A stretch of DNA of 37,464 bases from a virus (lineage: Duplodnaviria; Heunggongvirae; Uroviricota; Caudoviricetes). The notes under the pieces were generated by a model. That model ran no database searches. It had not been told where the DNA came from and worked only from the letters and a program-made list of their open reading frames with translations. Position 1 is the stretch's first letter. The number at the start of each line of letters is the position of its first letter. Both the position numbers and the translations under genes were made by a program. The stretch is from IMG/VR virus record IMGVR_UViG_2541047680_000009, positions 1 to 37,464 of that record; one strand, written 5' to 3'. Below are positions 9,959 to 37,464 of the stretch, piece by piece.

Positions 9959-10591
9959 TCATTCATCGTTCGTTGCACGAACGCGCCTGATCTCCACTCT
10001 GGCAATCTGATCTGCTGGAATATAGGTTGCCAGAGCTCCCCAGTACTTATCAACCACGCCTTTATACTCTTCCCATTCGTTACTGCCTGAAGGGCTGCTG
10101 TGCGTGACGTAAAGAACCATATCGCCTTTATTCCCCAGGGTAAACGGACCGTTAGGCCACTCTTCAAAGTTCCCTGGCAGCCGTGACATCATACCGGAAC
10201 CATCGCGAAGAATCACTCTGACCTCGGTAACGCTGAAGCCTGTTTGATCAAACATTGCCTGCCATGCTGAGCTGGTATCGTCAGACCATGAAATATCATT
10301 ATTCCACAGTAATCTGTACATCCATTTGCGACCGTACCTGCGCCACCACGCACCGCATGTAACGGCACACAGAAGTGCTGGTGGTGTTGCCAGCCAGGCA
10401 TTCAGACCTGCCCACATAACAGCCTGGTAAGCCATCATTGCTGTCAGGCCAAAAATCAGCGAAGAAAAAGTCACCTCAATGGGCTTGTGGTGATCCTTCA
10501 GTCCCACATTCGCAATAAAATACCCAATATAGCCACTGGTCAGGGTCACCAGTGTTGCCCATGGCAGATTTAACAACGAAACGTCAAACAT
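9959..10591 (-). CDS. Membrane protein of unknown function (about 3 N-terminal TM helices plus about 120-aa soluble C-terminal domain)
   Basis: GGAGA RBS 5 nt upstream of the ATG at 10591 (MFDVSLLNLPWATLV...); sits immediately downstream of the mor terminator, so likely a separate transcription unit at the extreme end of the early arm. Confidence 0.55.
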   Translation of the reverse strand: MFDVSLLNLPWATLVTLTSGYIGYFIANVGLKDHHKPIEVTFSSLIFGLTAMMAYQAVMWAGLNAWLATPPALLCAVTCGAWWRRYGRKWMYRLLWNNDISWSDDTSSAWQAMFDQTGFSVTEVRVILRDGSGMMSRLPGNFEEWPNGPFTLGNKGDMVLYVTHSSPSGSNEWEEYKGVVDKYWGALATYIPADQIARVEIRRVRATNDE

Positions 10592-10630
10592 ATTTTCTCC
10601 CTGCATCCTGAATACTAAAGAGAGAGCATA

Positions 10631-10660
10631 AAAAAAGCACGGTAAGGGGTCTACCGTGCT
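10631..10660 (-). terminator. Rho-independent terminator downstream of mor
   Basis: Perfect 9-bp stem AGCACGGTA/TACCGTGCT (10636-10660), 7-nt loop, followed on the minus strand by TTTTT. Confidence 0.7.
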
Positions 10661-10705
10661 TTTATACAATAAGGAGATTTTTGAAAGGACTTTAACAAGC
10701 AGGAA

Positions 10706-11104
10706 TTATCTGGATTTGTTAACGTCTTTCGTCTCCTCTGGCAGATCTTCATCAAACAACCTGCCCTGCATCCGATCCAGTTCTTCTTTTCTGACCCGCT
10801 TAACCACGCTGTAGACCCACTGAAGCGAAACACCAAACTTGCGGGCCAGTTCGTGGTGGTTGCGTCCGTTAAACTCCCTGAAGATTTCCCGGTCGCGCTG
10901 ACTGACCTTCCATACCATGCCCATCGGGAAATAAACGTTTTGCCCGCCCCAGACCTGCATCATTCGGTTCGCGACGGCCTGACCAATCTGGTCGGCAATT
11001 GCGGGCTCAATATCAATAATCTCGCGAACGGTCTCAGAGGTATGCTGTGCCAGCTCCACCAGGAGTTCCGGCCCTTTACTTCGAAACTGATTCAGGTCGC
11101 TCAT
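10706..11104 (-). CDS. mor: Mor-family transcriptional activator (Mu middle operon regulator)
   Basis: 132 aa; C-terminal FREFNGRNHHELARKFGVSLQWVYSVVKRVRKEE matches the Mor/C-family HTH region (Mu Mor: WNDFNGRNVSELTTRYGVTFNTVYKAIRRMRR). Confidence 0.85.
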   Translation of the reverse strand: MSDLNQFRSKGPELLVELAQHTSETVREIIDIEPAIADQIGQAVANRMMQVWGGQNVYFPMGMVWKVSQRDREIFREFNGRNHHELARKFGVSLQWVYSVVKRVRKEELDRMQGRLFDEDLPEETKDVNKSR

Positions 11105-11528
11105 GTTTGACTCCCGCAGCTCTGCGCTGCCACTTCTTCAGTTTCTCAATAACACTGCTTGCCTGTTCAGTACTGAGCCAGCGCAGGGCGCTGATGCCCG
11201 TTTCCCGCTTGATCCACCGCGCTAATGCATTTTCTGAACGGTCACGAACAATGCCGGCAGCAGCCATTTCAAGCCATAGCGCACGGATTTTCCTGGACTG
11301 CGGATGGTTATCCAGCGGTAAACCGGAGCTGGCTTTTCCGGCAGGCTTAACGCGAAAGCCTTTCCTTTTCATGGATTCCAGCACGCAGTTTAGTTGTGTG
11401 GTATCCATTCCTTTGGTTGAGGCTTTACCGGTCAGCCCCTGTAACATCTGGCGGTAGGTGTCTTCATCCATACCCAGTTCATTACGGGCAATATGAATGA
11501 GCTGGATAAGACGTTGTTTAGTCATCAT
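11076..11528 (-). CDS. gemA: GemA-family protein (Mu gp16-like)
   Basis: AAGGAG RBS 6 nt upstream of the ATG at 11528; MMTKQRLIQLIHIARNELGMDEDTYRQMLQ...AGKASS... resembles the GemA (DUF1018) family; sits directly upstream of mor as in Mu. Confidence 0.75.
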   Translation of the reverse strand: MMTKQRLIQLIHIARNELGMDEDTYRQMLQGLTGKASTKGMDTTQLNCVLESMKRKGFRVKPAGKASSGLPLDNHPQSRKIRALWLEMAAAGIVRDRSENALARWIKRETGISALRWLSTEQASSVIEKLKKWQRRAAGVKHERPESVSK

Positions 11529-11733
11529 CGTTGCTCCTTTTACCTGCGCCACCGATATAATCGACATATAAAGGAAGCGCCACAGGCCAGCACAGGAACA
11601 TCACCGACCAGCTAATCCAGTAGCCAGCACCACTGTAACGTGAATAAAACCCTGAACGGCGGTGCAGTTCAGCAGTACACCAACCGACAAAACAATACCA
11701 GAACAGGGCACATACAACAGATTCAGCCGTCAT
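11518..11733 (-). CDS. Small hydrophobic protein (71 aa), unknown function
   Basis: ATG at 11733 with a G-rich RBS; two predicted TM segments (VVCALFWYCFVGWC, WISWSVMFLCWPVALPL); overlaps neighbours by 11 nt on both sides. The ORF track extends the frame to 11889, but that start would overlap the previous gene. Confidence 0.4.
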   Translation of the reverse strand: MTAESVVCALFWYCFVGWCTAELHRRSGFYSRYSGAGYWISWSVMFLCWPVALPLYVDYIGGAGKRSNDDD

Positions 11734-11953
11734 TCTGAATATCCCCCCAACTGATATGAATATTACGGGCAGCAATGACAGGGTCGTTATTCCACCATGC
11801 ACCTGACATGTATTTTTCAACCTGTTCGCGTCCGGCAATAACACCAATTGTGATCCCCGGCCTGACGTTCTTAAAAAAGGCGCGGGCAAAAAGGTATCTG
11901 GCAGATATTCGGCAGGCTTTTAATTTCCGGCTTTTACCTGATAGCGTAATCAT
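11723..11953 (-). CDS. Hypothetical protein (76 aa)
   Basis: Start ATG overlaps the stop of the upstream gene (ATGA), indicating translational coupling. Confidence 0.4.
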   Translation of the reverse strand: MITLSGKSRKLKACRISARYLFARAFFKNVRPGITIGVIAGREQVEKYMSGAWWNNDPVIAARNIHISWGDIQNDG

Positions 11954-12633
11954 CTGGCCTCCAGTTTCTGTTGTTCCTGCCCACTGACCGGGCGGTGCAG
12001 TCTGACGTTCTGCCCTTCAAGAAACCCCGCATAGCGCGAGGCGTCGCCATTGCGGCTTCTTCCCGGTTTACGCGCCCTGGTGGTTTGCGTCTGCGGGTAT
12101 TTATGTTCCAGCCACTGCTGCATCAGTTCACGTTCGTCATCGGTCAGGGCGAAGGACTGTATTTCACTGATAACGGCCAGCACCCAGCCTTCAGCAAACT
12201 GGTCACCACGGCTGGTACGGGTGGCAGTTTTTATTCTTTTGTTCTGTGCGCTGATATATTGCTGACGCGCCTTTTTCAGCTGGCGGGCCAGCACTTCCCA
12301 GGTGTACGCAGCCAGTGCAGCCCGTTCCCGGTTGCCGTAGAACCCCACACCCGGATATGTGCCGGGGTGAATGATGGAGTTAACACCAAATGCCTCACGG
12401 ATGATGTTCATCAGGCCCAGCATGTAGCGCGGTGGACGGAGGCTGCCTGTCGGCCAGTAGTGACTGATGGTTTCATCAATATCACTCATGGCGATGTCGG
12501 AATGTGTGATGCCGTGAACATCCATCAGTTTACGGGCACGGCGCAGTGCCAGAGCGGCCTCGTGAGGGTTGCCGGATGCGGCCAGCGCCAGCAACTTTTT
12601 CAGTTTCTCAATGTGTTTATCCTGGTCTGTCAT
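11950..12633 (-). CDS. DUF2786-like phage protein (227 aa)
   Basis: N-terminal IEKLKKLLALAASGNPHEAALALRRARKLMDVHGI matches the conserved DUF2786 signature (KI.KLLALA.S.N..EA..AL..A..LM); ATGA overlap with the upstream gene. Confidence 0.55.
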   Translation of the reverse strand: MTDQDKHIEKLKKLLALAASGNPHEAALALRRARKLMDVHGITHSDIAMSDIDETISHYWPTGSLRPPRYMLGLMNIIREAFGVNSIIHPGTYPGVGFYGNRERAALAAYTWEVLARQLKKARQQYISAQNKRIKTATRTSRGDQFAEGWVLAVISEIQSFALTDDERELMQQWLEHKYPQTQTTRARKPGRSRNGDASRYAGFLEGQNVRLHRPVSGQEQQKLEAR

Positions 12634-12935
12634 TGTTCAGTATCTCCGGTGTACATGACGCCCAGCCGTGCGGCAAGGCGTTCCAGTTTTTTCTGTTTGT
12701 GGAAGTCAATCAGCCGGTCCATTCCCTGAAGGCGCAGCTGCTCTGTCATGATTTCCACGTCTGCCAGCTCTGCCGCGAGGTCACTTTCGCTGCCCTGTCC
12801 GTTCAGGTTGCGGGCGGCACTGGCCGCCAGTTCAGCGGCCTCTTCTGTCAGTTTCAGGGCCTGTGCGTCCGGCCCGAAACGCTGCAGGGCCAGACGGTAG
12901 AGGGCGGTGCGGGTGAGTTCGGTGTTCCGTGTCAT
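12630..12935 (-). CDS. MazG-like nucleotide pyrophosphohydrolase domain protein (101 aa)
   Basis: LTEEAAELAASA...(about 16 aa)...AAELADVEIMTEQL fits the paired EExxE / ExxD(V) helices of MazG-type NTP-PPases found in phages; assignment from motif only. Confidence 0.45.
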   Translation of the reverse strand: MTRNTELTRTALYRLALQRFGPDAQALKLTEEAAELAASAARNLNGQGSESDLAAELADVEIMTEQLRLQGMDRLIDFHKQKKLERLAARLGVMYTGDTEQ

Positions 12936-12944
12936 GCCGCGCCC

Positions 12945-13217
12945 TCAGTGTTTCCGGTCGACGGTGATGTTCAGGCCGCCTTCTGCAGTGGTTTCCATCC
13001 GGTACGGCACATCGTGCTCTGCCGTGTGGGTGAGTGTGTTCACCAGTACCTGCAGGGCAGCCGCCTTTCCGTTGGTCGCCACAATGGCCTGAGCGGTCAT
13101 GCTGATTAGCGCCGTCAGGACGTGCTTCACATCGGTGAGGTCGCGGCATTCACACTCGTTGACATAGTGTTCAACAAGGGTTCGGGTGCGCTGTCGTGCT
13201 TCCTGTGGGGTAATCAT
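12945..13217 (-). CDS. Hypothetical protein (90 aa)
   Basis: ATGA start/stop overlap with the upstream zinc-ribbon gene; no recognisable motif. Confidence 0.45.
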   Translation of the reverse strand: MITPQEARQRTRTLVEHYVNECECRDLTDVKHVLTALISMTAQAIVATNGKAAALQVLVNTLTHTAEHDVPYRMETTAEGGLNITVDRKH

Positions 13218-13408
13218 TGCGAGTCCTCCCTGTCAGGGCGGGAGAATTCCATGACGGGCACGTCTGCCGAAAAATGCTGACTGCAGTACGGACAGACCAG
13301 GGTGACGCGTACTGCAGGTACGTGGTACTTACCGGACATCACGGCGATGGCGCTGTGAAAACGCAGGGCTGTTATATCCCTCTCGCACTGAATACATTTA
13401 AATATCAT
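13214..13408 (-). CDS. Small zinc-ribbon protein (64 aa)
   Basis: Two Cys pairs (CIQC ... CPYC) spaced for a Zn ribbon; GAGGAG RBS 9 nt upstream. Confidence 0.45.
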   Translation of the reverse strand: MIFKCIQCERDITALRFHSAIAVMSGKYHVPAVRVTLVCPYCSQHFSADVPVMEFSRPDREDSQ

Positions 13409-13504: not shown

Positions 13505-14035
13505 TTACTGCACATTCTGCTCAAAAGGAATTATTGAAAAATCCTCAATATCACTTTTTATGGTAATACCGGGAATATTTTTCACGGCGTCCTTTTCATT
13601 CAGGATGGCGTCTTTATTTATTTCCTCCTTTACACGGATAAAGCGCTCAAGCCCCAGACGTCTCAGTAATTCAATAACATTATCCGCCCCACGGATACTG
13701 ACTGACGGCGGACGGTTTCGCCACTGCACCTCGCCGGTGGTGAGGTTAGCGAACTTCACCTTCCCGTTGCCGGTCAGTTCATCACGGTGTGCCTCACACC
13801 ATGTCTGAATACCGGACTGCAGTTCGGCCATGCGTTTTTTCAGGCTCTCGGTGAGCGGGGCATAACGTGCGGTGATGTCGCCAATGGTGTCATTCATTTC
13901 TGTTTCAGCCCTGACCAGTTCACGTTGCGCGTCACCAAGCAGTCTGATTCCCTCAATGACCTCTTCGCGTGTCCCCGGCACCCAGAGTGCTGCTGCGGCT
14001 TTGATACGTTTTGCCCCTTTTGTACTTTTTGCCAT
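13505..14035 (-). CDS. gam: Gam-like host-nuclease inhibitor (Mu Gam family)
   Basis: 176 aa; near-colinear similarity to Mu Gam (MAK..KRIK.AAA..VP..R..V...I..IGD.QRE..R.ETEMND.I..IT...A.......WCEA.RDELT..GKVK.ANL.TG.V.WR.RPPSVSIRG.D.V.E.L.RLGL.RFIR.K.EINK.AIL.E..AV..I.GIT.KS.IEDFSIIPFEQ). Confidence 0.9.
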   Translation of the reverse strand: MAKSTKGAKRIKAAAALWVPGTREEVIEGIRLLGDAQRELVRAETEMNDTIGDITARYAPLTESLKKRMAELQSGIQTWCEAHRDELTGNGKVKFANLTTGEVQWRNRPPSVSIRGADNVIELLRRLGLERFIRVKEEINKDAILNEKDAVKNIPGITIKSDIEDFSIIPFEQNVQ

Positions 14036-14334: not shown

Positions 14335-15501
14335 TTAAACCCCTTTGACAACGTCAGCGTTGACCTGTGGAACCCCGATTTCAGCGGCCAGATTCATGGC
14401 GGCTATTACCAGGTTACTGACGGCCAGCGGATACAGCAGGCTGACCATATTTTTACGATGACTTCCCGGATTGCTCAGGCGGGCACGTATGGCATCCACT
14501 GCGCTGGCGTCCATAATGTCCGTCAGTTGTTTACCGGCCCGTTGCAGTTTGAACGTCAGAAACTCTTCAAGGTTATTGTCCAGAGGCAGAAGTTCGACCA
14601 CCTCACAGCGCTGAACGACTTCACGGACTTCCATATTGCGTTCAGACAGTTTTGTCGCCAGTTCCGGCTGGCCAATCAGCACGATGGACAGCAGTTTTTT
14701 GAAACCGGACTCCAGCTCAAAAAAGCGTTTGAGGTGTTTCAGTGTCGGAATGGGCAGACTGTGGGCCTCCTCAATCACCAGAACGTGGCTGAACCCCGCC
14801 TGGCTGCTGTCTTTCAGGACGCGATGCAACTGGCGAAAGCGGGCGTCCTGACTGCGTCTGATGCTTTCCAGTGGTGCGATGGTACTGATAATGGCTTCGG
14901 CAATCGCTGCTGCCTTCAGGGTTTTCCCTTTCACATCGTTGTCTTCCATAGCGATGATGTATGGCTCGATAACAATTACCGGCGCATTCTCGCGGTTGAT
15001 ACGTTCAGTCAGGTCGCGGCGCAGCGTGGATTTACCCGCACCGGACTCACCGATGACGGCCATAAACCCACCATGACGGGCTGTCTGGTACAACGCCTCA
15101 CGCACGTAGCGAATATCCGGGGTGGTGAACACATCATCAGAACCCTGCATGGCTTCGTCGGCGAACGGGTCACGGAAAAGACCAAACGCTTTTTTGGTTG
15201 CTGGAAATAACACCTGTTTTTTGAGTAACATATTCTCTTCCTCACTGAGGCTCGTTTTATCTGTGGTACCCGCTGTACGGGGCGTGGCCGCGCCCTGTAC
15301 AGCATCAAAACTCTTCGTTGTATCAATCCCCTGACTTTCCAGCCAGGACGCAAGACGCCGGCGCACTTCTCCGGGGCTGGTGCGGGGCCACGCGTTATGA
15401 TTCACAATCTGGGCCAGCGTGGCCTCAGAAACATCGACAGCTCTCGCCACCACCGCCTGTGGAATACGGGCTTCTTTCAGTTGCTGCTTCAGTACCAGCA
15501 T
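14335..15501 (-). CDS. Transposition ATPase (MuB/TniB-like AAA+ protein with N-terminal HTH)
   Basis: GAGGAGG RBS 6 nt upstream of the ATG at 15501; N-terminal HTH (IPQAVVARAVDVSEATLAQIV); Walker A GESGAGKST; Walker B-like HVLVIEEAH; placed directly after the transposase. Confidence 0.85.
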   Translation of the reverse strand: MLVLKQQLKEARIPQAVVARAVDVSEATLAQIVNHNAWPRTSPGEVRRRLASWLESQGIDTTKSFDAVQGAATPRTAGTTDKTSLSEEENMLLKKQVLFPATKKAFGLFRDPFADEAMQGSDDVFTTPDIRYVREALYQTARHGGFMAVIGESGAGKSTLRRDLTERINRENAPVIVIEPYIIAMEDNDVKGKTLKAAAIAEAIISTIAPLESIRRSQDARFRQLHRVLKDSSQAGFSHVLVIEEAHSLPIPTLKHLKRFFELESGFKKLLSIVLIGQPELATKLSERNMEVREVVQRCEVVELLPLDNNLEEFLTFKLQRAGKQLTDIMDASAVDAIRARLSNPGSHRKNMVSLLYPLAVSNLVIAAMNLAAEIGVPQVNADVVKGV

Positions 15502-15511
15502 GTTTCCCTCC

Positions 15512-17281
15512 TCAGTTGCCGTTAACAATACTGATAACGCTGCTGCGGGCCGGCGTGGTCAGCGTGGCCATGACTTCATCCAGTGCGGCTTCCGGTACGC
15601 CGTCCGGATACTGTGCCGTTAACTGGCGGTAATGTTCCGGCGTCCAGGTAAAGCCGTTGGCGCTGAACTTATCGCGCAGGGCTTTCGCGGCCTCCACATA
15701 AGTCATGGGACGTTGTTCAGTGCGCGGCCCGCGTACGTCAGAGGCCTGACCACGCTTCGGCATATAGGCCGGAAGTGTGGTGTCGTCGATATGTTTATAC
15801 GGGTCAAGCCGCCCGCCGAACGGCAGCGCCTTCGCCTTGCGTGCGGCAGCTGCATCTGCGGCGTTGTCTGTACCGGTGACCAGCGCTTCGGTTTCTTTTG
15901 CCGCCATCTGCGCCGGGGTTTCCGGCAGGGCTTTGTAACTTTCGCCAAATACCGCCGCGCCTTCAGCAAAGCCAAACTCGTTCTTTCTGACCTCTTCGAC
16001 CAGGAAGAACGTCTCGTGGCCGTCCTCACCGGTCAGAACCACCTGTGCCACATCGCTGCGCCACGGGTTACGGGTAATCATCAGTTTTTCACCAACCAGT
16101 ACGCCCGGTACCGTTGATACGTCAAATTCAGTGCCCCGGAACGAGACACGAAGTTTTGGCGTGACTTTGCGGAGTTCTGGTGCCGCCACAGCCAGTTCAC
16201 GACATACCTCAACGGAAGGCGCTTTTTTCAGCTGCTCAGCAGTAATCTTCAGCCAGATATCCGTGCGGGTTTTACCGTGGCGGCTGTGAACAGCCGTGGC
16301 GTTAAAGTGGCTGCGCCATTTCGCGGCCAGCGCGTTGAGTTCTTCCAGACTGTGAACCGGCCGGAACTTCAGACCCGGCTCCAGCTTGCGTTCGATAATG
16401 TCCCGCGCCTTTTCCACCTGTCCGGTGGCGCGGGCGTTATGCGGCTTGTGCGCTATCAGGTCGATGCCCAGTGAGCGGCACATGTTTTTCGTCATACCCG
16501 CGGTGTTTGCCGAGCCGGGGTCGAGATAGAGTATTTTCGGCACACCGTGCAGCACGTCTGCGCCGCCACGCTCCTGCATGGCGTTGATAAGCACAGAACA
16601 CAGGTTCTCACCTGATTCCGCGCCCGTCACATACTCAACGTAAATCCAGCCGCTGGCATGGTCGGTAATCTCGTAACTCCACACGCGGTCACTGGCGATA
16701 CGGGCAAGGTTAGCGGGCTTGTTCTTGTAGAACTTCGCGCTGTCCATCACCTGCAGCCCTTTATGTCCATTGCTCAGGTAGTAAAGCGTGCAGAGTGAGG
16801 CGTCAATCTGCCAGACATGATTGGGATGCAGACTGGCCACTTCGGTATGCGGCGCAGGGGCATCCAGTTGTTCCGGGTGCAGGCCATAGTTACGCAGGGC
16901 TCGGCTGATGGCATCTTCGGACAACGGGAAAAACTCACCGGTGGTTTCATCTGTTCTGCCTGCGGATATAAAGCCGTTAGCCCGCAGGGTTTCCACTGCA
17001 TCCGCGATGGAATAGAGACGCTTACCGTTCTTGCGGGTGGCCTCACGCAGTGTGGCAGATATCAGCGCGGCTTCGTCGCGGGTCAGGGCGCTGCGCCCGG
17101 CATCGGCGCGTTTTTTGCGTTTATCAGTCACAGATACCTCCTTCAGCCTGCGCAGCAGAGTGGCGCGGGACATGCCAAGTTCAGCACAGGCAGCGTCGTA
17201 TACTGCGCCGCGTTTACCATGCCCCGCGTCACGTGCCGCGCGGGCGACATAAACCAGTCGTTCAGTCAGGGCAGCATTCAT
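15512..17281 (-). CDS. DDE transposase (rve/integrase-core type, Mu A functional analogue; spacing suggests Tn552/TniA-like rather than MuA-like)
   Basis: 589 aa; N-terminal HTH; catalytic region with HVWQIDAS (D1), YLDPGS (D2) and ...ATGQVEKARDIIE (E) in a D-D-35-E-like spacing; GGAGG RBS 9 nt upstream. Confidence 0.8.
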   Translation of the reverse strand: MNAALTERLVYVARAARDAGHGKRGAVYDAACAELGMSRATLLRRLKEVSVTDKRKKRADAGRSALTRDEAALISATLREATRKNGKRLYSIADAVETLRANGFISAGRTDETTGEFFPLSEDAISRALRNYGLHPEQLDAPAPHTEVASLHPNHVWQIDASLCTLYYLSNGHKGLQVMDSAKFYKNKPANLARIASDRVWSYEITDHASGWIYVEYVTGAESGENLCSVLINAMQERGGADVLHGVPKILYLDPGSANTAGMTKNMCRSLGIDLIAHKPHNARATGQVEKARDIIERKLEPGLKFRPVHSLEELNALAAKWRSHFNATAVHSRHGKTRTDIWLKITAEQLKKAPSVEVCRELAVAAPELRKVTPKLRVSFRGTEFDVSTVPGVLVGEKLMITRNPWRSDVAQVVLTGEDGHETFFLVEEVRKNEFGFAEGAAVFGESYKALPETPAQMAAKETEALVTGTDNAADAAAARKAKALPFGGRLDPYKHIDDTTLPAYMPKRGQASDVRGPRTEQRPMTYVEAAKALRDKFSANGFTWTPEHYRQLTAQYPDGVPEAALDEVMATLTTPARSSVISIVNGN

Positions 17282-18515: not shown

Positions 18516-18567
18516 CTGCATACCTCTTTTGCGATATGTGATAACCTTTTACAAAGACTCAAAATCT

Positions 18568-20076: not shown

Positions 20077-20117
20077 AATCTGTAAGCCTTTTACAATTAT
20101 TAAAAATATGGCAGGCT

Positions 20118-28463: not shown

Positions 28464-28465
28464 CA

Positions 28466-29138: not shown

Positions 29139-30254
29139 ATGTCAGCCATTCACATTTTTAAAGCCGGTACTCATACCGATATGCACGGCAAAAAACTGCC
29201 GTTCACGCCAGACGATCTTGCCGCCTGCGTGAAAGCCTATGACCCGTCCGTCCATGAAGCACCACTCGTGATTGGTCATCCCAGAACGGAAGACCCGGCG
29301 TGGGGCTGGGTGAAAGCCCTGTCGCTCAGCGGCGTCGATCTGATGGCAGAGCCTGCCCAGCTGGACCCGCAGTTTGCTGAGATGGTCACCGACGGACGAT
29401 TCAAAAAAGTGTCCGCCTCTTTCTACCTCCCGGATTCACCGTCCAATCCGAAGCCCGGCGTGCTCTACCTTCGCCATGTGGGCTTTCTCGGGGCACAGCC
29501 ACCTTCCGTCAAGGGGCTGAAACAGGTGTCCTTCAGTGAGCAGGAAGAAGGTGTGGTGGAGTTCGCCGACTGGCAGGCCATCACGAATGCCTCCCTGTGG
29601 GGAAAGCTGCGCGATTTTCTGATCGCCCGCTTCAGTCTGGACGAGGCAGAAAAAGTCCTGCCGGAATGGCAGCTCAACAGTCTGCGCGAAGAGGCGTACC
29701 GCGACACACTGTCGCAGGATGCAGCAGGTGCACAATTCAGTGAGACAGGCCCGGGGCCGTCTTCCGCAAGTAACGAGGAATCATCGATGACAAAAGAAGA
29801 GATTGAAGCCCTTCAGGAGGAGAACCGCCGCCTGAAGCAGCAGGCTGCTGATCGCGATGCGCGTGATGCACAGGTCAGACAGGAGCAACTGCATAAGGAC
29901 AATGTGGCCTTTGCAGAAAAACTGGTCGCAGAGGGCCGTCTGGCTCCCCGCGCCTCCTCCGTGGTGGTTGCCCTGCTGGATGCCGTCGCCGGTGGCGACA
30001 AGCCGGTGGAGTTTGCTGAGGGGGAAAGCCGCACACCGCTGGCCACCGCCTTTCGTTCATTGCTCTCCGACGGGGAGCCGGTGATGAATTTCGCCGAACA
30101 GGCCACAAAAGAGCGTGTCGGCGACACGGTGAAGGTGGATGTGGCAGAGTTTGCGGAAGCCGATCCTGAGCGTCTGGCCCTGCATCAGAAAGCAGTGGCC
30201 CTGTCCAAAAAAGAAGGCATCAGCTATGAGGCTGCTGTCGCACGCTGCCTGTAA
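29139..30254 (+). CDS. Head protease/scaffold, Mu I-like
   Basis: N-terminal MSAIHIFKAGTHTDMHGKKL...PLVIGHP (Mu I protease signature) followed by a coiled-coil scaffold-like C-terminus; preceded by a 214-bp gap. Confidence 0.8.
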   Translation: MSAIHIFKAGTHTDMHGKKLPFTPDDLAACVKAYDPSVHEAPLVIGHPRTEDPAWGWVKALSLSGVDLMAEPAQLDPQFAEMVTDGRFKKVSASFYLPDSPSNPKPGVLYLRHVGFLGAQPPSVKGLKQVSFSEQEEGVVEFADWQAITNASLWGKLRDFLIARFSLDEAEKVLPEWQLNSLREEAYRDTLSQDAAGAQFSETGPGPSSASNEESSMTKEEIEALQEENRRLKQQAADRDARDAQVRQEQLHKDNVAFAEKLVAEGRLAPRASSVVVALLDAVAGGDKPVEFAEGESRTPLATAFRSLLSDGEPVMNFAEQATKERVGDTVKVDVAEFAEADPERLALHQKAVALSKKEGISYEAAVARCL

Positions 30255-30268
30255 TTTAAGGAGAGAGC

Positions 30269-31222
30269 ATGTCTGATTACTTAAAAGGTAAACGTGTCGT
30301 TGATCCGGTACTGACCAGTATCGCCCGTGGCTATAAAAATGCCGCATTCATCGGCGAACGTATTTTCCCCGTCGTGCTGACGGACAAGGAAGGCGTGCGT
30401 GTACCGACCTTCGGGAAAACCGCCTTTGTGGAATATGACACCGAGCGTGCCGTCGGGGCGGACAGCAATGTTCTGGTCCGTGAAAAAACAGGCACGCTGG
30501 ACCTGGTGCTGGGTGAACACGATCTGGCTGCGCCGGTGGACTATCGCGAGCAGGCGGAGTCCATGTTTAACGAAGAGAGCAAGGCCATCCGTCGCGCCAC
30601 GAATGGCGTGAACCTGCGCCGTGAACTTATCGCTGCCCGTCTGGCTCAGGATGAAAAGGTCTACCGTACCGGGCACGTCAAAAAACTGACAGCCAGTGAT
30701 CGCTGGGCCGGTGGTAAGGGGGACCCCATCGGGGTGATTGAAGCCGGTATGGAAGCGGTCCGTACGGCCACGGGGCTGCGTCCTAACCTGATGACCATGG
30801 GGGCCGGCGTGATGGCGCTGCTGAAGTTCCACCCGGCGATTCAGGCCGCCATCGGAGCCAACGAACGCAAGCGCATCACCACAGAAATCCTGCAGGACCT
30901 CTTTCAGATCGAAGAGATCGTCATCGGTGCCCCAGTCTCCCTGCCGTCCATGAAAGCGGCAATGGATAAGAACAGCGTGCCGGCGGATATCTGGGGAGAC
31001 AATCTGATGCTGCACTATGTCGGCAAACCGCAGCCGGGGGCGGACAGCGCGGACGAGAACGAGCCGTCCTTCGGCTACACCCTGCGTCGTAAGGGGATGC
31101 CTGTTGCCGACAAATACGACGGAGCCGGTGGCAAGGTGAAGTACTGCCGTTATACCGATATCTACAAAGTCGCCGTGGTTGGTGGCGATGCCGGGTATCT
31201 CATTACCGGTATCAGTAAATAA
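30269..31222 (+). CDS. Major capsid protein, Mu T-like
   Basis: 317 aa; size, position and composition as for Mu gpT; strong RBS (AAGGAGAG). Confidence 0.8.
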   Translation: MSDYLKGKRVVDPVLTSIARGYKNAAFIGERIFPVVLTDKEGVRVPTFGKTAFVEYDTERAVGADSNVLVREKTGTLDLVLGEHDLAAPVDYREQAESMFNEESKAIRRATNGVNLRRELIAARLAQDEKVYRTGHVKKLTASDRWAGGKGDPIGVIEAGMEAVRTATGLRPNLMTMGAGVMALLKFHPAIQAAIGANERKRITTEILQDLFQIEEIVIGAPVSLPSMKAAMDKNSVPADIWGDNLMLHYVGKPQPGADSADENEPSFGYTLRRKGMPVADKYDGAGGKVKYCRYTDIYKVAVVGGDAGYLITGISK

Positions 31223-31231
31223 GGAGGCGTT

Positions 31232-31570
31232 ATGGGAACCACTCAGCAGGTCATTCTGATCACAACCGTAACGGCAGGGGCAGCACTGGCACAGCAGCGT
31301 TTTGTCGGGGCAGATAATACCCCCTGTAAAGCCGGTGCCGCAGCGCTCGGGGTTGCCGAAGTGGATGCTGTTACCGGCGACAGCACGCCGGTGAGCGTTC
31401 TGGGCATTATTGCTGTCGAGGCCGGGGCCGCTGTCAGCCGTGGTGTGGCTGTTCAGTCAGATGCTCAGGCCAGAGCCGTGCCGCAGTCCGGCGACGGTAA
31501 ATCCTGTGGTATTGCACTTGATGAAGCCGGGGGTGAAGGCGACGTCATTCGTATCCTGCGCGGGGTGTGA
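31232..31570 (+). CDS. Head-associated protein (DUF2190-like), Gly/Ala/Val-rich
   Basis: 112 aa; composition and position immediately after the major capsid gene. Confidence 0.5.
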   Translation: MGTTQQVILITTVTAGAALAQQRFVGADNTPCKAGAAALGVAEVDAVTGDSTPVSVLGIIAVEAGAAVSRGVAVQSDAQARAVPQSGDGKSCGIALDEAGGEGDVIRILRGV

Positions 31571-31571
31571 C

Positions 31572-32018
31572 ATGTACTGCACCCTGGAGGATTTGCTTGC
31601 GCAGGTGCCGGAGCGGACGCTTATCGAGCTCACCAGTGAAGAGATGGACTTCGACTCACCTGCAACAGTGAATACCCGTGTGGTGGACAGCTGTATCCGC
31701 TATGCCGACGAGCTGATTGATGCCCATCTGCGCGGACGCTATATCCTGCCACTGGCAGAGATACCGACTGTTCTGCGGGACATTGCCATCACGCTGGTCC
31801 GTTACCGGCTCTACGCCCGCCGCCCGGAAGGTGACCTCCCGGATACGGTGAAGGATGACCACAAAGAAGCGCTGCGGCAACTCAGGGAGTTACGTGATAA
31901 CAGGCTCACGCTGGGGCTGCCGTCCACTCAGAAAGATGTGCCTGAGCCTGGCGAGTTTCGTGTACGCAGTCGCCCGGCTACTTTCGGCGGTCGTGACGGT
32001 TTACTGGAGAAATACTGA
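31572..32018 (+). CDS. Mu gp36-like protein (DUF1320), head-tail joining
   Basis: ATG at 31572 directly after the upstream stop; MYCTLEDLLAQVPERTLIELT... typical N-terminus of the DUF1320 family. Confidence 0.6.
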   Translation: MYCTLEDLLAQVPERTLIELTSEEMDFDSPATVNTRVVDSCIRYADELIDAHLRGRYILPLAEIPTVLRDIAITLVRYRLYARRPEGDLPDTVKDDHKEALRQLRELRDNRLTLGLPSTQKDVPEPGEFRVRSRPATFGGRDGLLEKY

Positions 32019-32482
32019 TGAACGTTCTGCCCGTCCTTGATGCGGTACTGGCCCGGTTACGCGAGAAGCTGCCGCAACTGCAGGTGGAGTACTTCCCGGA
32101 GAAACCGGCTGAATATCGCCTGAACCATCCGGTTGGCGCGTTGCTGTTGAGCTATGCCGGTTCGCGCTTTGACAGGCCGGATGATACCGGTGCGGTGATC
32201 CAGTCTCAGACTATCCAGCTCTGCGTCACGGTGGTCTTCCGCCAGCTCAACGGTAAAAAAGGGGCGATTAATGTCCTGGATGCTGTCCGCCGCATTCTCG
32301 GTGGCCACACCCCGCCCGGCTGCCGCCGCCGTATCTGGCTGACCCGCGAGGTGTTTATCGGTGAAGTCAGGGGGCTGTGGCAGTACGCCCTCGACTTCGC
32401 GACTGAAAGCGTCTTTATCGAAGACAGCGATTTACCGTCCGGCCCGCTGTTAACCGAAGTGAACTATGAGGAAAGCGAGTGA
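32018..32482 (+). CDS. Mu gp37-like protein (DUF1834)
   Basis: 154 aa; start overlaps the upstream stop; position as in Mu. Confidence 0.55.
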   Translation: MNVLPVLDAVLARLREKLPQLQVEYFPEKPAEYRLNHPVGALLLSYAGSRFDRPDDTGAVIQSQTIQLCVTVVFRQLNGKKGAINVLDAVRRILGGHTPPGCRRRIWLTREVFIGEVRGLWQYALDFATESVFIEDSDLPSGPLLTEVNYEESE

Positions 32483-32733
32483 TGAAAGAATACCGCTATT
32501 CCGGCCCGGCCAGCGGCGTCACGCTGTCGGACGGAACCGAAATCCTGCTCTGGCCGGGGAAGACGGTTTCCCTGCCGGAGGAGCATGACTACGTGAAGGT
32601 ACTGGTGGCGCTGAAACATCTGACGCCGGTACCTGAAGAGACTAAACCCGCCGGCACACCGGCTGTGCAGTCACCAAAGCGCAGAAGCAGCAGTGACAGC
32701 GAAGTGAAAACGGAGGACACCCATGGCAGCTAA
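32479..32733 (+). CDS. Hypothetical protein (84 aa)
   Basis: ATGA overlap with the upstream gene; immediately precedes the sheath gene. Confidence 0.45.
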   Translation: MMKEYRYSGPASGVTLSDGTEILLWPGKTVSLPEEHDYVKVLVALKHLTPVPEETKPAGTPAVQSPKRRSSSDSEVKTEDTHGS

Positions 32734-34150
32734 CTATCTGCATGGTCCCGAAACCATTGAGGTGGAAAACGGTGCCCGCCCGGTTAAAACGGTGAAATCT
32801 GCCGTTATTGGCCTGATTGGTACCGCCCCGATGGGGGATGTCAATACGCTGGTACAGTGCCTGTCTGAGAAAGGCGCAGCGGCATTTGGCAGCCAGTTCA
32901 CCGGCTTTACCATTCCGCAGGCGCTGGATGCGATTTATGACCATGGTGCAGGCACCGTTCTGGTCATTAACGTCCTCGACCCGGCGAAACATAAAACGGC
33001 GATCGAGGATGAGGTGGTTACCTTTGACAAATCGACAGGGCAGGCCAGACTGGCGCATCCGGTTGTCGCTAATGTGGTGGTGAAAAACAGTGAAGGCAGC
33101 ACCACCCACACGGCGAACACGGACTACCGTGTTGATGCGCAGGCGGGTGTGCTCACGAACCTGGGCAAGGCTATTGAGGCCGGTGGCAGCGTGAAGGTGA
33201 GCTATGAGTACGCGGACCCGTCGAAGGTGACTGCGGCGGACATCATCGGCGGGGTGAACAGCGCCGGAAACCGAACCGGCATGAAGCTGCTTAACGACAG
33301 CTTCAACCTGTACGGCTATTTCGCCAAAATTCTGATTGCGCCGGTGTTCTGCACCCAGAAGAGTGTCGCAGTTGAGCTTATCGCCATGGCAGAGAAGCTG
33401 GGCGCGGTAACCTACATTGATGCGCCTGTCGGTACCACCTTTGCACAGGCTCTGGCAGGTCGTGGCCCGGAAGGCACCATCAACTTCAATACCAGCTCCG
33501 ACCGCGTCCGTCTGTGCTATCCGCATGTGAAGGTATATGACCCGGTGACAAACACAGAGCGTCTGGAGCCGCTCAGCCAGCGTGCAGCAGGTCTGCGTGC
33601 CAGAGTCGATCTGGACAAGGGCTACTGGTGGTCATCCTCCAATCAGGAGATTCTGGGGATCACCGGCGTGGAGCGCCAGCTGTCCGCGATGATTGATGAC
33701 CCGCAGAGTGAGGTGAACCTGCTTAACGAACAGGGGATCACCACGGTATTCAGCAGTTACGGCAGCGGCCTTCGTCTGTGGGGTAACCGGACGGCAGCAT
33801 GGCCAACGGTCACCCATATGCGTAACTTTGAGAACGTTCGCCGCACCGGTGATGTGATCAACGAGTCCATTCGTTATTTCAGCCAGCAGTACATCGACAT
33901 GCCGATTACTCAGGCGCTGATTGATGCACTGACGGAGTCGGTCAACGCCTACGGTCGCAAAATGACTGGTGATGGTGCGGTACTGGGCTTCCGTTGCTGG
34001 TTTGATCCGGCCCGCAATCCGGAGACGGAGCTGGCCGCCGGGCACCTGTTGCTGAGCTACAAATATACGCCACCACCGCCGCTGGAGCGACTGACGTTTG
34101 AGACTGAGATCACCTCGGAATACCTGTTAACCCTGAAAGGGGGCAACTGA
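32723..34150 (+). CDS. Tail sheath protein (Mu L-like)
   Basis: 475 aa; contractile-sheath size and conserved N-terminal region; followed by the tube gene. Confidence 0.85.
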   Translation: MAANYLHGPETIEVENGARPVKTVKSAVIGLIGTAPMGDVNTLVQCLSEKGAAAFGSQFTGFTIPQALDAIYDHGAGTVLVINVLDPAKHKTAIEDEVVTFDKSTGQARLAHPVVANVVVKNSEGSTTHTANTDYRVDAQAGVLTNLGKAIEAGGSVKVSYEYADPSKVTAADIIGGVNSAGNRTGMKLLNDSFNLYGYFAKILIAPVFCTQKSVAVELIAMAEKLGAVTYIDAPVGTTFAQALAGRGPEGTINFNTSSDRVRLCYPHVKVYDPVTNTERLEPLSQRAAGLRARVDLDKGYWWSSSNQEILGITGVERQLSAMIDDPQSEVNLLNEQGITTVFSSYGSGLRLWGNRTAAWPTVTHMRNFENVRRTGDVINESIRYFSQQYIDMPITQALIDALTESVNAYGRKMTGDGAVLGFRCWFDPARNPETELAAGHLLLSYKYTPPPPLERLTFETEITSEYLLTLKGGN

Positions 34151-34671
34151 TGTCAAAGATTGAGATAAACCGCATCACGAATGCCAACATCTATCTGGAT
34201 GGTACTAACCTGCTGGGACGGGCTGAGGAAGTCAAACTCCCCGATGTCTCCATGATTATGCAGGAACACAAGGCGCTGGGGATGGTGGGTAAGGTGGAAC
34301 TCCCGGCTGGTTTTGACAAGCTGGAAGGCGAAATCAAATGGAACAGCTTTTACCGCGATGCGATGCTGTCTGCCGCGAACCCGTACAGGTCGCTGGCACT
34401 GCAGTGTCGTTCCAGCGTCCAGCGCTACAGCTCGCAGGGGCTGATTGACGAAATCCCGCTGGTCACCTTCCTGACGATTATGTTCAAGAAGAACCCGCTG
34501 GGGACGTTCAAACAGCACGAGAACGCCGAGTTCTCCAGTAGCTTCACCTGCACGTATATCAGACAGGTACTGGATGGTGAAGAGCTGCTGCAACTGGACT
34601 ATCTGGCCAACATCTTCCGGGTCGGCGGTGTTGATCAACTGACTGACTACCGTATCAATATCGGGGGCTGA
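34150..34671 (+). CDS. Tail tube protein (Mu M-like)
   Basis: 173 aa; start overlaps the sheath stop; position between sheath and chaperone. Confidence 0.7.
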   Translation: MSKIEINRITNANIYLDGTNLLGRAEEVKLPDVSMIMQEHKALGMVGKVELPAGFDKLEGEIKWNSFYRDAMLSAANPYRSLALQCRSSVQRYSSQGLIDEIPLVTFLTIMFKKNPLGTFKQHENAEFSSSFTCTYIRQVLDGEELLQLDYLANIFRVGGVDQLTDYRINIGG

Positions 34672-34673
34672 CG

Positions 34674-34955
34674 GTGAGTGTTGAACTGACGGATAAAGGA
34701 GGACGATGTGCGGCACTGGGCATGTCAAATGGTACGTGGTTTACCCTCCTTGATATTCCGGGGGTGGAAACCCTTTTTAATACCCGTAAAACCAATGACC
34801 CGATTGACTGCACACGTTCAAAGGCCCGCAAACTGGCGGATTTGATTGAAGCATGGGAGCCTCCCGACCACTGGTTCTCCGGCATCGGCAAATCTGAGGG
34901 AAAGACGCTTCTCATCGCTTTCCTGCGTAACTGCAAGGGGTTTCGCACTTGCTGA
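34674..34955 (+). CDS. Hypothetical protein (93 aa), GTG start
   Basis: ORF directly after the tube gene; no family recognised. Confidence 0.35.
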   Translation: MSVELTDKGGRCAALGMSNGTWFTLLDIPGVETLFNTRKTNDPIDCTRSKARKLADLIEAWEPPDHWFSGIGKSEGKTLLIAFLRNCKGFRTC

Positions 34956-35052
34956 CATCACAGGGGCTCCGGCCCCTTCTTCTTAATCTCCTTTAATATC
35001 CGTCACGCGCTTCTCCCGACATACTGCCCTGAACTTACACAGGAGCACAATC

Positions 35053-35388
35053 ATGTCACAGACCCCATCCGATACTTTTAAATTGTCTTATCCCTTCACC
35101 ACTGCTGCAGGCACCAGAATTGAGCTGGTTGAACTGAAACGCCTGACGGTAAAAGACCTGAAGCAGGTGCGCAAAATCAGCAAAAACCCGGCAGACTGGG
35201 ACGAACCGCTGATTGCCCGCAGTACTGGTCTTCTCCCGGAAGATCTCGACAATATGGATCTGGCTGATTACCTGCAGTTACAGAAACGATTTCAGCTCAT
35301 CACGGGGATGGGTGAGAGCAACCAGGGCGCTGACGCAGGCGCAGGGGCTGCTGGCGAGATGGTTCCGGTTTCAGCCGGGGGAGATTGA
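35053..35388 (+). CDS. Tail assembly chaperone (G-like); a frameshift at a G-run near its 3' end would extend it into the overlapping ORF ending at 35470 (GT-like product)
   Basis: 111-aa ORF directly upstream of the tape measure gene; a second ORF in the frame offset by +1 (35213-35470) overlaps its 3' end and has no independent plausible start. Confidence 0.6.
   Translation: MSQTPSDTFKLSYPFTTAAGTRIELVELKRLTVKDLKQVRKISKNPADWDEPLIARSTGLLPEDLDNMDLADYLQLQKRFQLITGMGESNQGADAGAGAAGEMVPVSAGGD
35377..35381 (+). promoter_or_regulatory. Candidate programmed-frameshift slippery run (GGGGG) in the tail chaperone gene
   Basis: Frame A reads ...GCC GGG GGA GAT TGA; frame B (offset +1) reads ...CCG GGG GAG ATT GAT GCC... 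and continues for 28 more codons to 35470. Confidence 0.45.
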
Positions 35389-35544
35389 TGCCCTCGATAC
35401 TGACGATCTGGAGATGTGGCTGGAGCAGGCTGAAGAGCAAATCAAAAGCGAGTACGGCGACAAATCATAGTACAGACAGCCGCCAGTAGCGGCTGTTCTG
35501 CGTTATCCCCTCACGTCTTTTCACCTTCCCCGGAGGTTAACCAC

Positions 35545-37464
35545 TATGTCGGGACAGTTTTCAGTCGGCGTTGTTATCGGCGGGATGATTGGCAGCACAT
35601 TCCGTTCTGCAATGAGCGGTACCCGCCGTGCGCTTGATTCCCTGAGCGATACCTCACGCCGCCTGCAGGAACGTCAGAACGCTTTAACCCGTGCAACAGA
35701 ACGTTATGGTCAACTGGGTTCTTCCCGGATGCAGCATCTCAACAGCGAGCTGCTGCGGGTAAGCCGCACCATGGAGCAAATTGAGCGCCAGCAGCGCCGT
35801 CTGTCAGCGGCATCCGCTACCAGTGATGCGCTGAAAGCTAACCGCATGGCGCTGTATGGTCAGGGGATTGAAGCGTATGGCATGGCACAGACTGTTTATC
35901 ATACGGTTTCCCCTGCCGTTCAGCAGTCCATGTCTTTTCAGGACAAAATGATTGATATGTCGATCACCGCAAAATATGACAATAAAACGCGGGATGCACT
36001 TGCCGGACAGATAAAAGGCTGGGCGCTTAAATACAATCAGTATCAGGATGAGCTGCAGGAGGCGGTGGGTTCACTCATCAGCGACAATATTGATAATGTG
36101 TCAGATATCGGTTTTCTGATGCCGGATATTGCCCGCGCGGCAACGGCAACACGCACGTCTGCTCAGGACTGGGCAAAAGTGGCCGCAGTCTGGCAAAACT
36201 CCCTGAAAGGTGCGGCCAGAGATTTTGGTGCCGTTCAGAATATTATGGCTTATGCCGGTGACCAGGGGTCATTTGAAATCCCGGATCAGGTCAAGTGGAT
36301 GCAGTCCCTGGCCCCAATGATGGCGGGTCTTGCCAGTGGAAAAGAGGCTGTTGCTGAAATCGGGGCCAGTCTCCAGATAGCAAAAATCGGTGCAGGTTCC
36401 ACCGACGAAGCAGCCAATAATTTTAAAAACTTTCTTACCAAAATTTTTGCCCGCGATACTCAGAAACAGTTTGCTGATCTGGGTATTGATTTGCAGGGAT
36501 CTATTGCGAGTTATAAAGCTGCGGGGATCTCTCCGATTGAAGGGATGTTGAGTGTTATAGAACGTTACCTCAATGCCAAAAGCCCCGAAGCGCTGGCCGG
36601 CTTCAAATCAGCCATGAAAATAAAGAATGATACGGCAAGAGATGAGGCACTTCAGGCTCTGGCGAAAAACTTTGGTCTGGGCGATATGTTCGCGGATATG
36701 CAGGTCATGGCATTTATCCGCCCGATGCTGGCCAACATGGACAGATATCGAGAGATCCGTGCCGGTGCTCTCAGGGCTGCGGATAACGATTTGCTTGCCA
36801 GTGCTTATGATCAGCGGCTGAAATCTCCCCTTGAAGCCACTAAAACACTTATGGTCAGCAGTCGCGATCTGGCAATTACGCTGGGCGATCAATTAGCTCC
36901 ATCTTTTATTTCTCTGACTCAGGAACTGCTCCCACTCATTCAGGGGACAAAACACTGGGTAGCGACTCACCCGCAATTTGTCAGTGGGGCTTTTAAGCTC
37001 ATCAGTGCGCTCCTTGCGATTAAGATAGCGACTATTGGTCTCAAACTGGGGCTGAATCTCCTTATTTCCCCCTTTGTGAACGTCTGGAAAACTACTGTTT
37101 TACTCCGGACCAACTGGCATCGACTGACTACCGCACTCGGAGAAGGTGGCAAATTACGCTGGCTTGTCACTGGATTCAGCCGACTGACCAGCGGAGGACT
37201 GAAACTCAGCAAAGTTCTGGCGGGCAGCCTCGTTCGCGGTTTTATGAGCGCTGCACGTGCCGTTCTCTGGATTGGGCGAGCGCTGATGATGAATCCCATC
37301 GGTCTCGTTATCACCGCTGTCGCGACAGCAGCTTACCTTATCTACCGCAACTGGGGGGCTGTCAGTGGTTGGTTTAAACAGCGCTGGGCTGACATTCAGG
37401 AAGCCTTTAACGGCGGCATTGTGGGAATTGGTAAGTTGCTGATTAACTGGTCGCCGGCAGGCCT
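35545..37464 (+). CDS. Tail tape measure protein (partial, continues beyond the window)
   Basis: GGAGG RBS 9 nt upstream of the ATG at 35545; 640 codons open to the window end; alpha-helical, Ala/Gln-rich N-terminus and C-terminal hydrophobic segments typical of tape measure proteins. Confidence 0.8.

Follow-up and report, generated by a model that had tools for sequence, protein, structure and literature searches.

The stretch of DNA considered here (IMG/VR record IMGVR_UViG_2541047680_000009, 37,464 nt, hereafter the window) comprises a piece of the Escherichia coli chromosome and, from position 9598 to its end, a prophage whose genes are arranged in two blocks standing back to back. The early block, harboring the genes of a DDE transposase, an AAA+ ATPase, the end-protecting protein Gam, a GemA-like protein and the late activator Mor, is read leftward, and the lysis, head and tail genes are read rightward; a repressor, a Dam methylase and several accessory genes are situated between them (Table 1). 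The sequence from 9598 to the window end, i.e., ~27.9 kb of a ~38-kb element residing at an intergenic site, almost certainly belongs to one temperate, transposable prophage, a myovirus of the BcepMu group, and makes up its left three-quarters, the full length being ~37.7–38.3 kb, as in the complete copies elsewhere. The preceding part, 1–9597, is E. coli chromosome with 99.8% identity to many strains; it encodes a LacI-family regulator, a phosphotransferase system (PTS) ascorbate-type transporter, a transketolase, a YadA-like adhesin and a c-type lysozyme inhibitor. Past ~10 kb, the guanine–cytosine (GC) content climbs from ~45% to 54–57%.

The genes were called by scanning with Pfam, PHROGs, NCBIfam and PADLOC, and 43 open reading frames (ORFs) of the window were compared by blastp with the proteins of the phages BcepMu and Mu. 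Homologs of BcepMu proteins were found for 28 of them, with 30–76% amino acid identity (e.g., 62% for the large terminase TerL and 59% for the portal protein), and their order and strands agree between the two phages; thus, the likeness to BcepMu suggested in the original prediction is borne out. According to the BcepMu record (NC_005882), genes 1–16 of that phage occupy the minus strand, from Mor and GemA through an ExeA-like ATPase and an rve (retroviral-integrase) transposase of the Tn552/IS1604 type to a helix-turn-helix (HTH) protein, and the repressor gp17 and everything from the holin onward occupy the plus strand. The two phages share the leftward early arm with Mor and GemA on the far left, followed in order by the ATPase, the transposase, gp10, gp12 and gp16; the rightward repressor; the holin, the SLT endolysin and Rz with an embedded Rz1; the Mu-type head and the P2-type tail; and termini starting with TGA and bearing two 9-bp repeats at positions 12–20 and 35–43. 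At the same time, the E. coli element differs from BcepMu in its Mu-like Gam and the lack of a blastp match to gp03–gp07 in the middle of the early arm, in the replacement of gp18–gp20 by Dam and three unassigned ORFs between the repressor and the lysis genes, in two extra genes beside the left end, and, judging from the complete copies, in a right-end Gin-like invertase with alternative tail-fibre genes in contrast to the acyltransferase of BcepMu.

The transposase is 68% identical to BcepMu gp09 over 581 aa. Its catalytic triad comprises D160 (WQID), D254 (YLDPG) and E290 (GQVEK), all three kept in gp09. The D-to-E distance of 36 corresponds to the D(35)E pattern, as in retroviral integrases and Tn552; the D-to-D distance of 94 exceeds the spacing known for retroviral integrases. 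In MuA, the D-to-E distance is 56 (D336, E392). Direct BLASTP comparison with MuA gave nothing significant (best E = 0.48), which, along with the D(35)E rve core, agrees with the early impression of an enzyme unlike MuA. Searches of the PDB returned only marginal matches to retroviral integrases (best integrase E = 0.03), in which the core's second D and its E are aligned.

The nearest non-phage relatives of this transposase on plasmids, as found by tblastn, are IS481-family transposases (~25% identity, E ~1e-11), and there are sub-threshold NCBIfam matches to IS481 and IS21. One could therefore imagine an IS481 or IS21 insertion sequence (IS) that landed inside a non-transposable prophage, and the IS-family origin of the enzyme had been named beforehand as a finding that would speak against a transposable phage. 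The scores, however, are far below the curated cut-offs (67.5 vs 224 bits for IS481 and 42.9 vs 160 bits for IS21), no IS-like inverted repeats lie beside the gene, and the gene, which has a close BcepMu relative, shares a conserved operon with that of the ATPase. What decides the matter is where the ends and the target duplications lie: matching terminal repeats are found at the ends of the whole 38-kb element, so an inserted IS can be dismissed as extremely improbable, and the enzyme is best regarded as the transposase of the phage itself.

Directly downstream of the transposase gene lies that of the ATPase, which is 59% identical over its full length to BcepMu gp08, annotated as a “DNA transposition protein”. 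It gave no blastp match to MuB, and a PDB search was uninformative; it is presumed to be the transposition partner, i.e., a functional analog of MuB. A comparable pair, an rve D,D(35)E transposase beside a partner ATPase (p480/p271), is found in Tn552 of Staphylococcus aureus, which makes a 6–7 bp duplication, fitting the 6 bp seen here (see below). The element differs from Tn552 in being a 38-kb phage, and its transposition arm showed neither a resolvase nor a res module. Pairwise alignments with p480 (the frameshifted pMW2 copy) were weak, with E = 9e-3 for the PNxxWQxD motif and E = 7e-4 for a gap-free D...E stretch, as was that of the ATPase with p271 around Walker B (E = 4e-3); kinship of the transposase with that of Tn552, weak by such comparison, appears plausible. 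In sensitive blastn, the module of transposase, ATPase and DUF3102 genes showed 65–70% nucleotide identity to B3-like Pseudomonas phages, which are siphoviruses, and to Ralstonia phages. Since the module is common to B3-like siphoviruses, the BcepMu-type transposition cassette seems to circulate among phages with different tail types.

The borders of the element were derived from its copies in other genomes. The left 2.4 kb recurs with 99–100% identity beside many different host genes, and 598 genomes contain the right-end sequence. Five other insertions were examined, the whole element being fetched for strains ABU 83972, CU39ES-1 and S7 and both junctions only for ECAMP047 and G749. The element with both its arms is situated between the halves of rstB, flgA and yeiB in the former three strains, respectively, and the junctions in the latter two are at clbG and within an amino-acid permease gene (accessions NC_017631.1, rstB; NZ_CP082777.1, flgA; NZ_CP196265.1, clbG; NZ_CP107128.1, yeiB; NZ_CP014488.1, amino-acid permease). 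In all five junction alignments, identity runs from TGATCAG to GCATCA, and each insertion is flanked by a 6-bp duplication (ACAAAT, GTGCGG, ATAAAG, GCGCGG and CATTCC). Hence, the search for both prophage ends, proposed with the original prediction as its check, returned TG...CA ends with a short target duplication in these five genomes. The termini of the E. coli copies read TGAT...ATCA with two GMGATAAAT repeats per end, and the four termini (left and right of the E. coli element and of BcepMu) align free of gaps, with TGA at positions 1–3 and G-GATA--T at 12–20 and 35–43. Accordingly, the left border is 9598 (TGATCAG...) and not 9959 as initially proposed, a start which omitted ~360 bp with the transposon end and the 53-aa ORF.

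The corresponding empty site is found in E. coli strain 104 as ...ACGGTTGCTTAG|GAGTGCTG, which can also be read as ...GGTTGCTTAG|GAGTGC. On the basis of this uninterrupted site, GCTTAG is predicted to be the duplicated hexamer of the window copy. Its right end is thus expected ~38 kb downstream of 9598 as ...GCGCGGCGCATCA followed by GCTTAG-GAGTGCTG, the predicted junction reading ...GCATTTATCGCGCGGCGCATCA and then GCTTAGGAGTGCTG. This site was occupied in none of the complete genomes searched.

The GC dip and the mixed gene direction at 18.8–21.7 kb might give the impression that two unrelated prophage remnants adjoin each other by chance, a finding likewise named in advance as one that would undo the proposed layout. 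Such a juxtaposition is hardly conceivable, because in each of the other genomes examined the element, with TGAT...ATCA ends and a 6-bp duplication, interrupts another locus: one pair of ends and one duplication per insertion were documented at the junctions of five loci, and for the whole element at three of them. Moreover, the phages matched are the same for both arms, within one alignment place, the arms are contiguous in 612 genomes, and the layout of BcepMu is identical. Within the window, the terminal 21-mer and the GMGATAAAT repeat do not occur outside 9598–9640; therefore, there are no internal ends in it. All of this argues for a single element with two divergent arms.

The same conclusion follows from the distribution of the element. 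Host-genome searches carried out with 9598–34500 (24.9 kb) found this sequence as a single piece with 100% identity in at least eight complete E. coli genomes, so the gene layout cannot be ascribed to chance. At least 80% of the sequence was found in 612 of the 5426 complete E. coli genomes (~11%), in up to three places per genome. Among phage records, megablast revealed Escherichia phage PhiKM (PQ738613), deposited as a phage record from uropathogenic E. coli and filed by GenBank under Bcepmuvirus, as one continuous match that covers 91% of the query with 96.4% identity; ~85% nucleotide identity was seen for Klebsiella phage KP12 and Escherichia phage Phi06_2974 B. Each of these three matches covers the leftward and the rightward gene blocks. 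No match to BcepMu itself was returned by megablast against the phage records.

A phage of the Mu type proper (Muvirus) with a recently inverted early region would also display divergent arms, and Gam, GemA, Mor and the head genes are indeed homologous to those of Mu. Only 10 ORFs of the window match Mu proteins, including Gam (62%), TerL (49%) and F (48%), as well as GemA, Mor/C, gp27, the portal protein, G and gp36, and none of the 43 shows blastp similarity to MuA, MuB, Mu c or ner; hence, the transposase, the ATPase, the repressor and the gene in the Ner position are without Mu counterparts. The target duplication of Mu is 5 bp in length, as opposed to 6 bp here, and the element possesses one activator of the Mor/C family instead of two, an SLT endolysin and a P2-type tail. 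The lack of similarity to MuA or MuB refutes the inverted-Mu origin, the probability of which is practically negligible. It shares with Mu the transposable lifestyle, the TG...CA ends and a control gap between G and I at the same position. The contrast with the layout of Mu drawn at the outset was accurate: in the Mu record (NC_000929), c is at the left end and all genes from ner through the late ones are rightward, so the early and late genes are co-directional, whereas here the early genes run leftward and the late ones rightward from a switch 9.2 kb inside the element.

The features that delimit Muvirus (Mu, D108, SfMu) are thus missing: MuA, MuB, c and ner have no similar counterparts here, the arms are divergent, and the duplication is of 6 bp. 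By contrast, the family-level features of BcepMu are present, namely the inverted early arm, the homologs of gp09 and gp08, the TG...CA ends with a short duplication, and the set of head, tail and lysis genes. Members of the BcepMu family include SalMu, PhotoMu, ChromoMu and phiE255. The strict genus criterion of the ICTV is ~70% nucleotide identity over the genome, and the similarity of the element to BcepMu or phiE255, as judged from an 8-kb segment, falls below this level for Bcepmuvirus, the GenBank label of PhiKM notwithstanding.

Several points weigh against assigning the window copy to an intact BcepMu-group phage. Nucleotide similarity to BcepMu and phiE255 is low, ~69% over 27–32% of an 8-kb segment in sensitive blastn, so the element is more aptly termed BcepMu-like than closely related to BcepMu itself. 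The completeness of the window copy is deduced from identical copies in other genomes, because the window stops short of the right-hand 10 kb, the right terminus and the duplication's other copy. Induction, transposition and Mor-dependent late transcription are suggested by analogy with Mu and BcepMu. Finally, the promoter and terminator calls represent consensus matches, and promoter-like sites in the region are no more numerous than in shuffled sequence.

Table 1. Features of the prophage and its left border in the window (positions of the whole stretch; E-values and bit scores are from domain scans, identities from blastp).
Feature	Position	Strand	Remarks
Host hexamer GCTTAG	9592-9597		Predicted left copy of the 6-bp target-site duplication; the right copy would lie outside the window
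Left transposon end	9598-9657	+	TGATCAGACAT...; identity of the E. coli copies starts exactly here beside differing flanks
9-bp repeats GAGATAAAT	9609-9617, 9632-9640	+	Two in the left end; putative transposase-binding sites
53-aa ORF	9794-9955	+	Left-end accessory gene
210-236 aa ORF	9959-10591/10669	-	Hydrophobic N-terminal half, ~three membrane spans by eye; phrog_12870, function unassigned
Mor/C-family late transcription activator	10706-11104	-	PF08765, E = 1e-43
GemA-like protein	11076-11567	-	PF06252, E = 1e-40; BcepMu gp02 45%, Mu GemA 36%
Six small semi-essential early genes	11518-13408	-	Including a DUF2786/DUF7168 protein (11950-12633)
Fragment resembling NTP pyrophosphohydrolase	12630-12935	-	Among the six small early genes
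Gam	13505-14035	-	Protects DNA ends from host nucleases; PF07352, E = 8e-41
AAA+ “ExeA-like” ATPase	14335-15528	-	AAA_22, E = 4e-20
DDE transposase, rve type	15512-17281	-	rve 35.8 bits vs cut-off 32.6
DUF3102 protein	17285-18196	-	Like BcepMu gp10
Winged-helix HTH protein	18207-18521	-	Like BcepMu gp12
62-aa DNA-binding protein, first early gene	18568-18756	-	BcepMu gp16 family; TIGR04111, 97 bits vs cut-off 34
Divergent switch region	18757-18856		100 bp
Sigma-70-like leftward promoter TTGACT-17-CATAAT	18832 to 18804	-	10/12 consensus matches; directly upstream of the first early gene
HTH_3 (XRE/cI-type) repressor	18857-19195	+	PF01381, E = 3e-7; BcepMu gp17 36%
Hairpin and T run	19281-19305	+	Terminator-like; 3' of the repressor
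Dam methylase	19312-20076	-	PF02086, E = 6e-29; PADLOC MTase_II
71-aa ORF	20268-20483	-	PHROG, function unassigned
134-aa ORF	20482-20886	+	PHROG, function unassigned
247-aa ORF	20862-21605	-	Walker A motif (GPVGSGKS); PHROG of unassigned function; marginal PADLOC mad8 match, E = 5e-3
Late-promoter-like motif TAACGCGCTTTAAAA	21669-21683	+	52 nt upstream of the holin ATG
Holin	21736-22086	+	Holin_2-3, E = 1.5e-41; BcepMu gp21 53%
SLT transglycosylase endolysin	22089-22826	+	SLT, E = 2e-14; BcepMu gp22 61%
Rz	22855-23466	+	BcepMu gp23 30%
Embedded Rz1 lipoprotein	~23162-23428	+	+1-frame ORF within Rz; lipobox LAVSC, Pro-rich tail
Two small conserved proteins, gp27 (small terminase), TerL, portal, Mu F, Mu G	23463-28924	+	Phage_Mu_Gp27, Portal_Mu, Phage_Mu_F, Phage_tail_S
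G-I gap hairpin and T run	~28975-29010	+	Conserved with BcepMu
Late-promoter-like motif TAAAGCAGATTAAAA	29067-29081	+	57 nt upstream of the I-like gene
I-like head protease/scaffold, major capsid, DUF2190 cement protein, gp36, Gp37, 84-aa protein	29139-32733	+	Pfam; BcepMu gp32-gp38 42-53%
P2-type sheath, tube, 93-aa ORF, tail assembly chaperone, tape measure	32723-37464	+	Phage_sheath_1, Phage_tube FII, Phage_TAC_7, PhageMin_Tail
Hairpin and T run	34956-34995	+	Terminator-like; 3' of the tube/93-aa ORF

The composition of the early arm, which had been listed as lying on the minus strand from 18756 downward, was upheld save for its last member: the ORF ending at 9959 had been taken for mor, and mor is the next gene. 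The Mor protein displays 56% identity to BcepMu gp01, 31% to Mu Mor and 35% to Mu C by blastp; its gene is the final regulatory one of the leftward operon and encodes the sole activator of the Mor/C family present. At the opposite end of the operon, the 62-aa protein is 46% identical to BcepMu gp16 and gives a weak match (E = 3e-3) to HTH_35, which we take to be the family of Mu Ner; it is Ner/Cro-like by position and size. A PDB search with the DUF3102 protein returned nothing informative. The middle of the arm is of a different character. The six small genes have no blastp counterparts in BcepMu or Mu, so this interval represents a mosaic part of the arm; next to it, Gam is 62% identical to Mu Gam and has no blastp match in BcepMu, hence the middle of the early arm appears as a mosaic between the Mu and BcepMu lineages.

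Between Mor and the left end, the ORFs in 9794–10669 gave no match in Pfam, PADLOC or NCBIfam and have no BcepMu counterpart in blastp; their GC content is 44–49% vs 54–57% in the arms. The hydrophobic ORF among them looks like an acquired accessory gene (“moron”), perhaps one involved in exclusion or lysogenic conversion.

The repressor, the Dam methylase and the accessory module had been placed between the arms, and the domain scans and coordinates agree with this placement. For the repressor, the most plausible start is the ATG at 18857, giving MIGLRIKEERERL..., with alternative ORF starts at 18704 and 18737. The leftward sigma-70-like element in the switch region can be considered the putative early promoter, as its sequence suggests. 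In the accessory module (19312–21605), which lacks BcepMu counterparts in blastp, PADLOC matched the methylase alone; the 71-, 134- and 247-aa ORFs gave no Pfam or NCBIfam match, and the search of the PDB with the 247-aa ORF was uninformative. Rfam scanning of the whole window at gathering thresholds detected no RNA family.

The rightward lysis, head and tail genes, which had been placed on the plus strand from 21736 to the window end, were recovered there by Pfam and blastp, and the endolysin was found to be the SLT transglycosylase it had been taken for. The proteins encoded in 23463–28924 are 45–62% identical to BcepMu gp25–gp31 and 27–49% identical to Mu gp27–G. In the tail module, the sheath and the tube share 76% and 67% identity with those of BcepMu, respectively, and no blastp match to Mu tail proteins was found; the tape measure gene starts at 35546 and is cut by the window end.

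Putative late control sites were found at two places. A shared motif, TAAMGCNNNTTAAAA, precedes the holin gene and the I-like gene, with TAAAAT elements at 21678–21683 and 29076–29081, and BcepMu carries an exact 15-mer, TAAAGCCGATTAAAA, at both equivalent places (BcepMu 11486–11500 and 18813–18827). These positions are presumably those of the Mu late promoters Plys and PI. The motifs are probably Mor-dependent late promoters, to judge from their sequence and location. The hairpin in the G–I gap displays compensatory changes in its outer stem (GCTGTA/TACAGC vs CCCGTA/TACGGG between the two phages), and is most simply viewed as a terminator. A strong gyrase site like that of Mu was also considered for this gap, but there is no convincing conservation with the Mu gap, and a terminator hairpin with a late promoter fits better. 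In the tail gaps, apparent minus-strand hits to the late-promoter motif proved to be T runs belonging to hairpin terminators of the plus strand and not further copies of it.

By analogy with Mu and BcepMu, the following life cycle can be proposed. In the lysogen, the XRE-type repressor would silence the leftward early promoter in the switch region. Upon induction, the leftward operon would be expressed, yielding the gp16/Ner-like regulator, the transposase, the ATPase, Gam, GemA and, lastly, Mor. The ATPase would select and activate targets and Gam would shield DNA ends, while the transposase would bind the paired 9-bp sites at both ends and cut at the terminal TG/CA, so that the genome would replicate by repeated transposition with target cuts staggered by 6 bp. 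Mor would then switch on the rightward late units from the motifs upstream of the holin and I-like genes, the DNA would be packaged by the headful into Mu-type heads, these would be joined to P2-type contractile tails, and the particles would be released by the holin, the SLT endolysin and Rz/Rz1.

The window copy could, compatibly with its family assignment, be a defective or domesticated prophage unable to transpose or to form particles. Its last 10 kb is outside the view, and a comparable E. coli region was scored as “questionable” by PHASTER. Nevertheless, such a defect is rather unlikely: all ORFs in 9598–34500 are identical to those of copies at many sites, and the 96% relative PhiKM was deposited as a phage record. 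Recent mobility is indicated by the identical copies occupying many different sites, up to three per genome.

The right end seen in the complete copies harbors a Gin-like “recombinase family protein” and oppositely oriented tail-fibre/assembly genes (36136–39697, 167–4350 and 33919–38154 in the coordinates of the fetched loci), and their arrangement varies among ABU 83972, CU39ES-1 and S7; this part has the look of an invertible segment for host range like that of Mu. On plasmids, 14 places match the right-end sequence, and a 98%-identical transposase gene is present on the 377-kb E. coli plasmid CP088398.1. The PhiKM record (PQ738613.1) is partial and permuted: it begins at the small terminase gene and continues via the tail into the early arm, with a sequencing gap within the tape measure gene. 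PhiKM appears to be without the left-end 1.1 kb, because the megablast match begins at window position 10746. Its coding sequence at 20200–20544, labelled “Fe2+ ABC transporter permease”, is located where two phage ends join and may be host-derived or misannotated. In the host flank, 1–9597 aligns to other E. coli in two pieces, with the span in the record being 165 bp longer than that in the window; the ORF of the YadA-like adhesin is of 382 aa here (7093–8241) and of 419 aa in strain 104, and there is probably an indel within or close to this gene.

The BcepMu family was reportedly described by Summer et al. in 2004 (J Mol Biol 340:49) as having a left end inverted relative to Mu, a transposase of the Tn552/IS1604 lineage and enterobacterial relatives, and the SLT endolysin is also said to have been described for the family in that year. 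According to the paper on KS10, a close relationship exists between the transposases of the BcepMu type and that of Tn552, and the ends of BcepMu-related elements are TG...CA (PMC2628397); BcepMu has been described as a myovirus that transposes, and its relatives occur in Salmonella, Photorhabdus and Chromobacterium (PMC3417384). On the transposase lineage and the relatives, papers citing the 2004 study are in accord with it. Earlier reports place BcepMu-like or Bcepmuvirus prophages in uropathogenic E. coli and in E. coli of sequence type ST131, a published PHASTER table lists a 36.8-kb E. coli region with 28 coding sequences matching BcepMu, and Bcepmuvirus phages have been induced from human gut Pseudomonadota isolates. 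Hence, the divergent layout of the early and late genes is the textbook layout of the described BcepMu family, and the element is a common, catalogued and already known prophage of E. coli. As back-to-back early and late blocks are a published hallmark of the group, the initial observation was correct but ordinary, and with the exact prophage sequence already represented many times in RefSeq, it carries little weight as a discovery.

A few points are of practical use. The prophage disrupts functional genes in other strains, e.g., the colibactin gene clbG, flgA and rstB (ABU 83972). Since insertion appears random (rstB, flgA, clbG and yeiB in other strains), its role in knocking out E. coli genes may be underestimated, and the slots of the element at 9794–10669 and 19312–21605 may carry uncharacterised functions in lysogenic conversion, superinfection exclusion or defense against phages; we hold these suggestions to be tentative and somewhat doubtful. 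The precisely defined ends and the 6-bp duplication help in annotating prophage boundaries. Present in ~11% of the complete E. coli genomes and inserted without site preference, the element shows that the common resident Mu-like phage of E. coli belongs to the BcepMu type, not to the Mu type.

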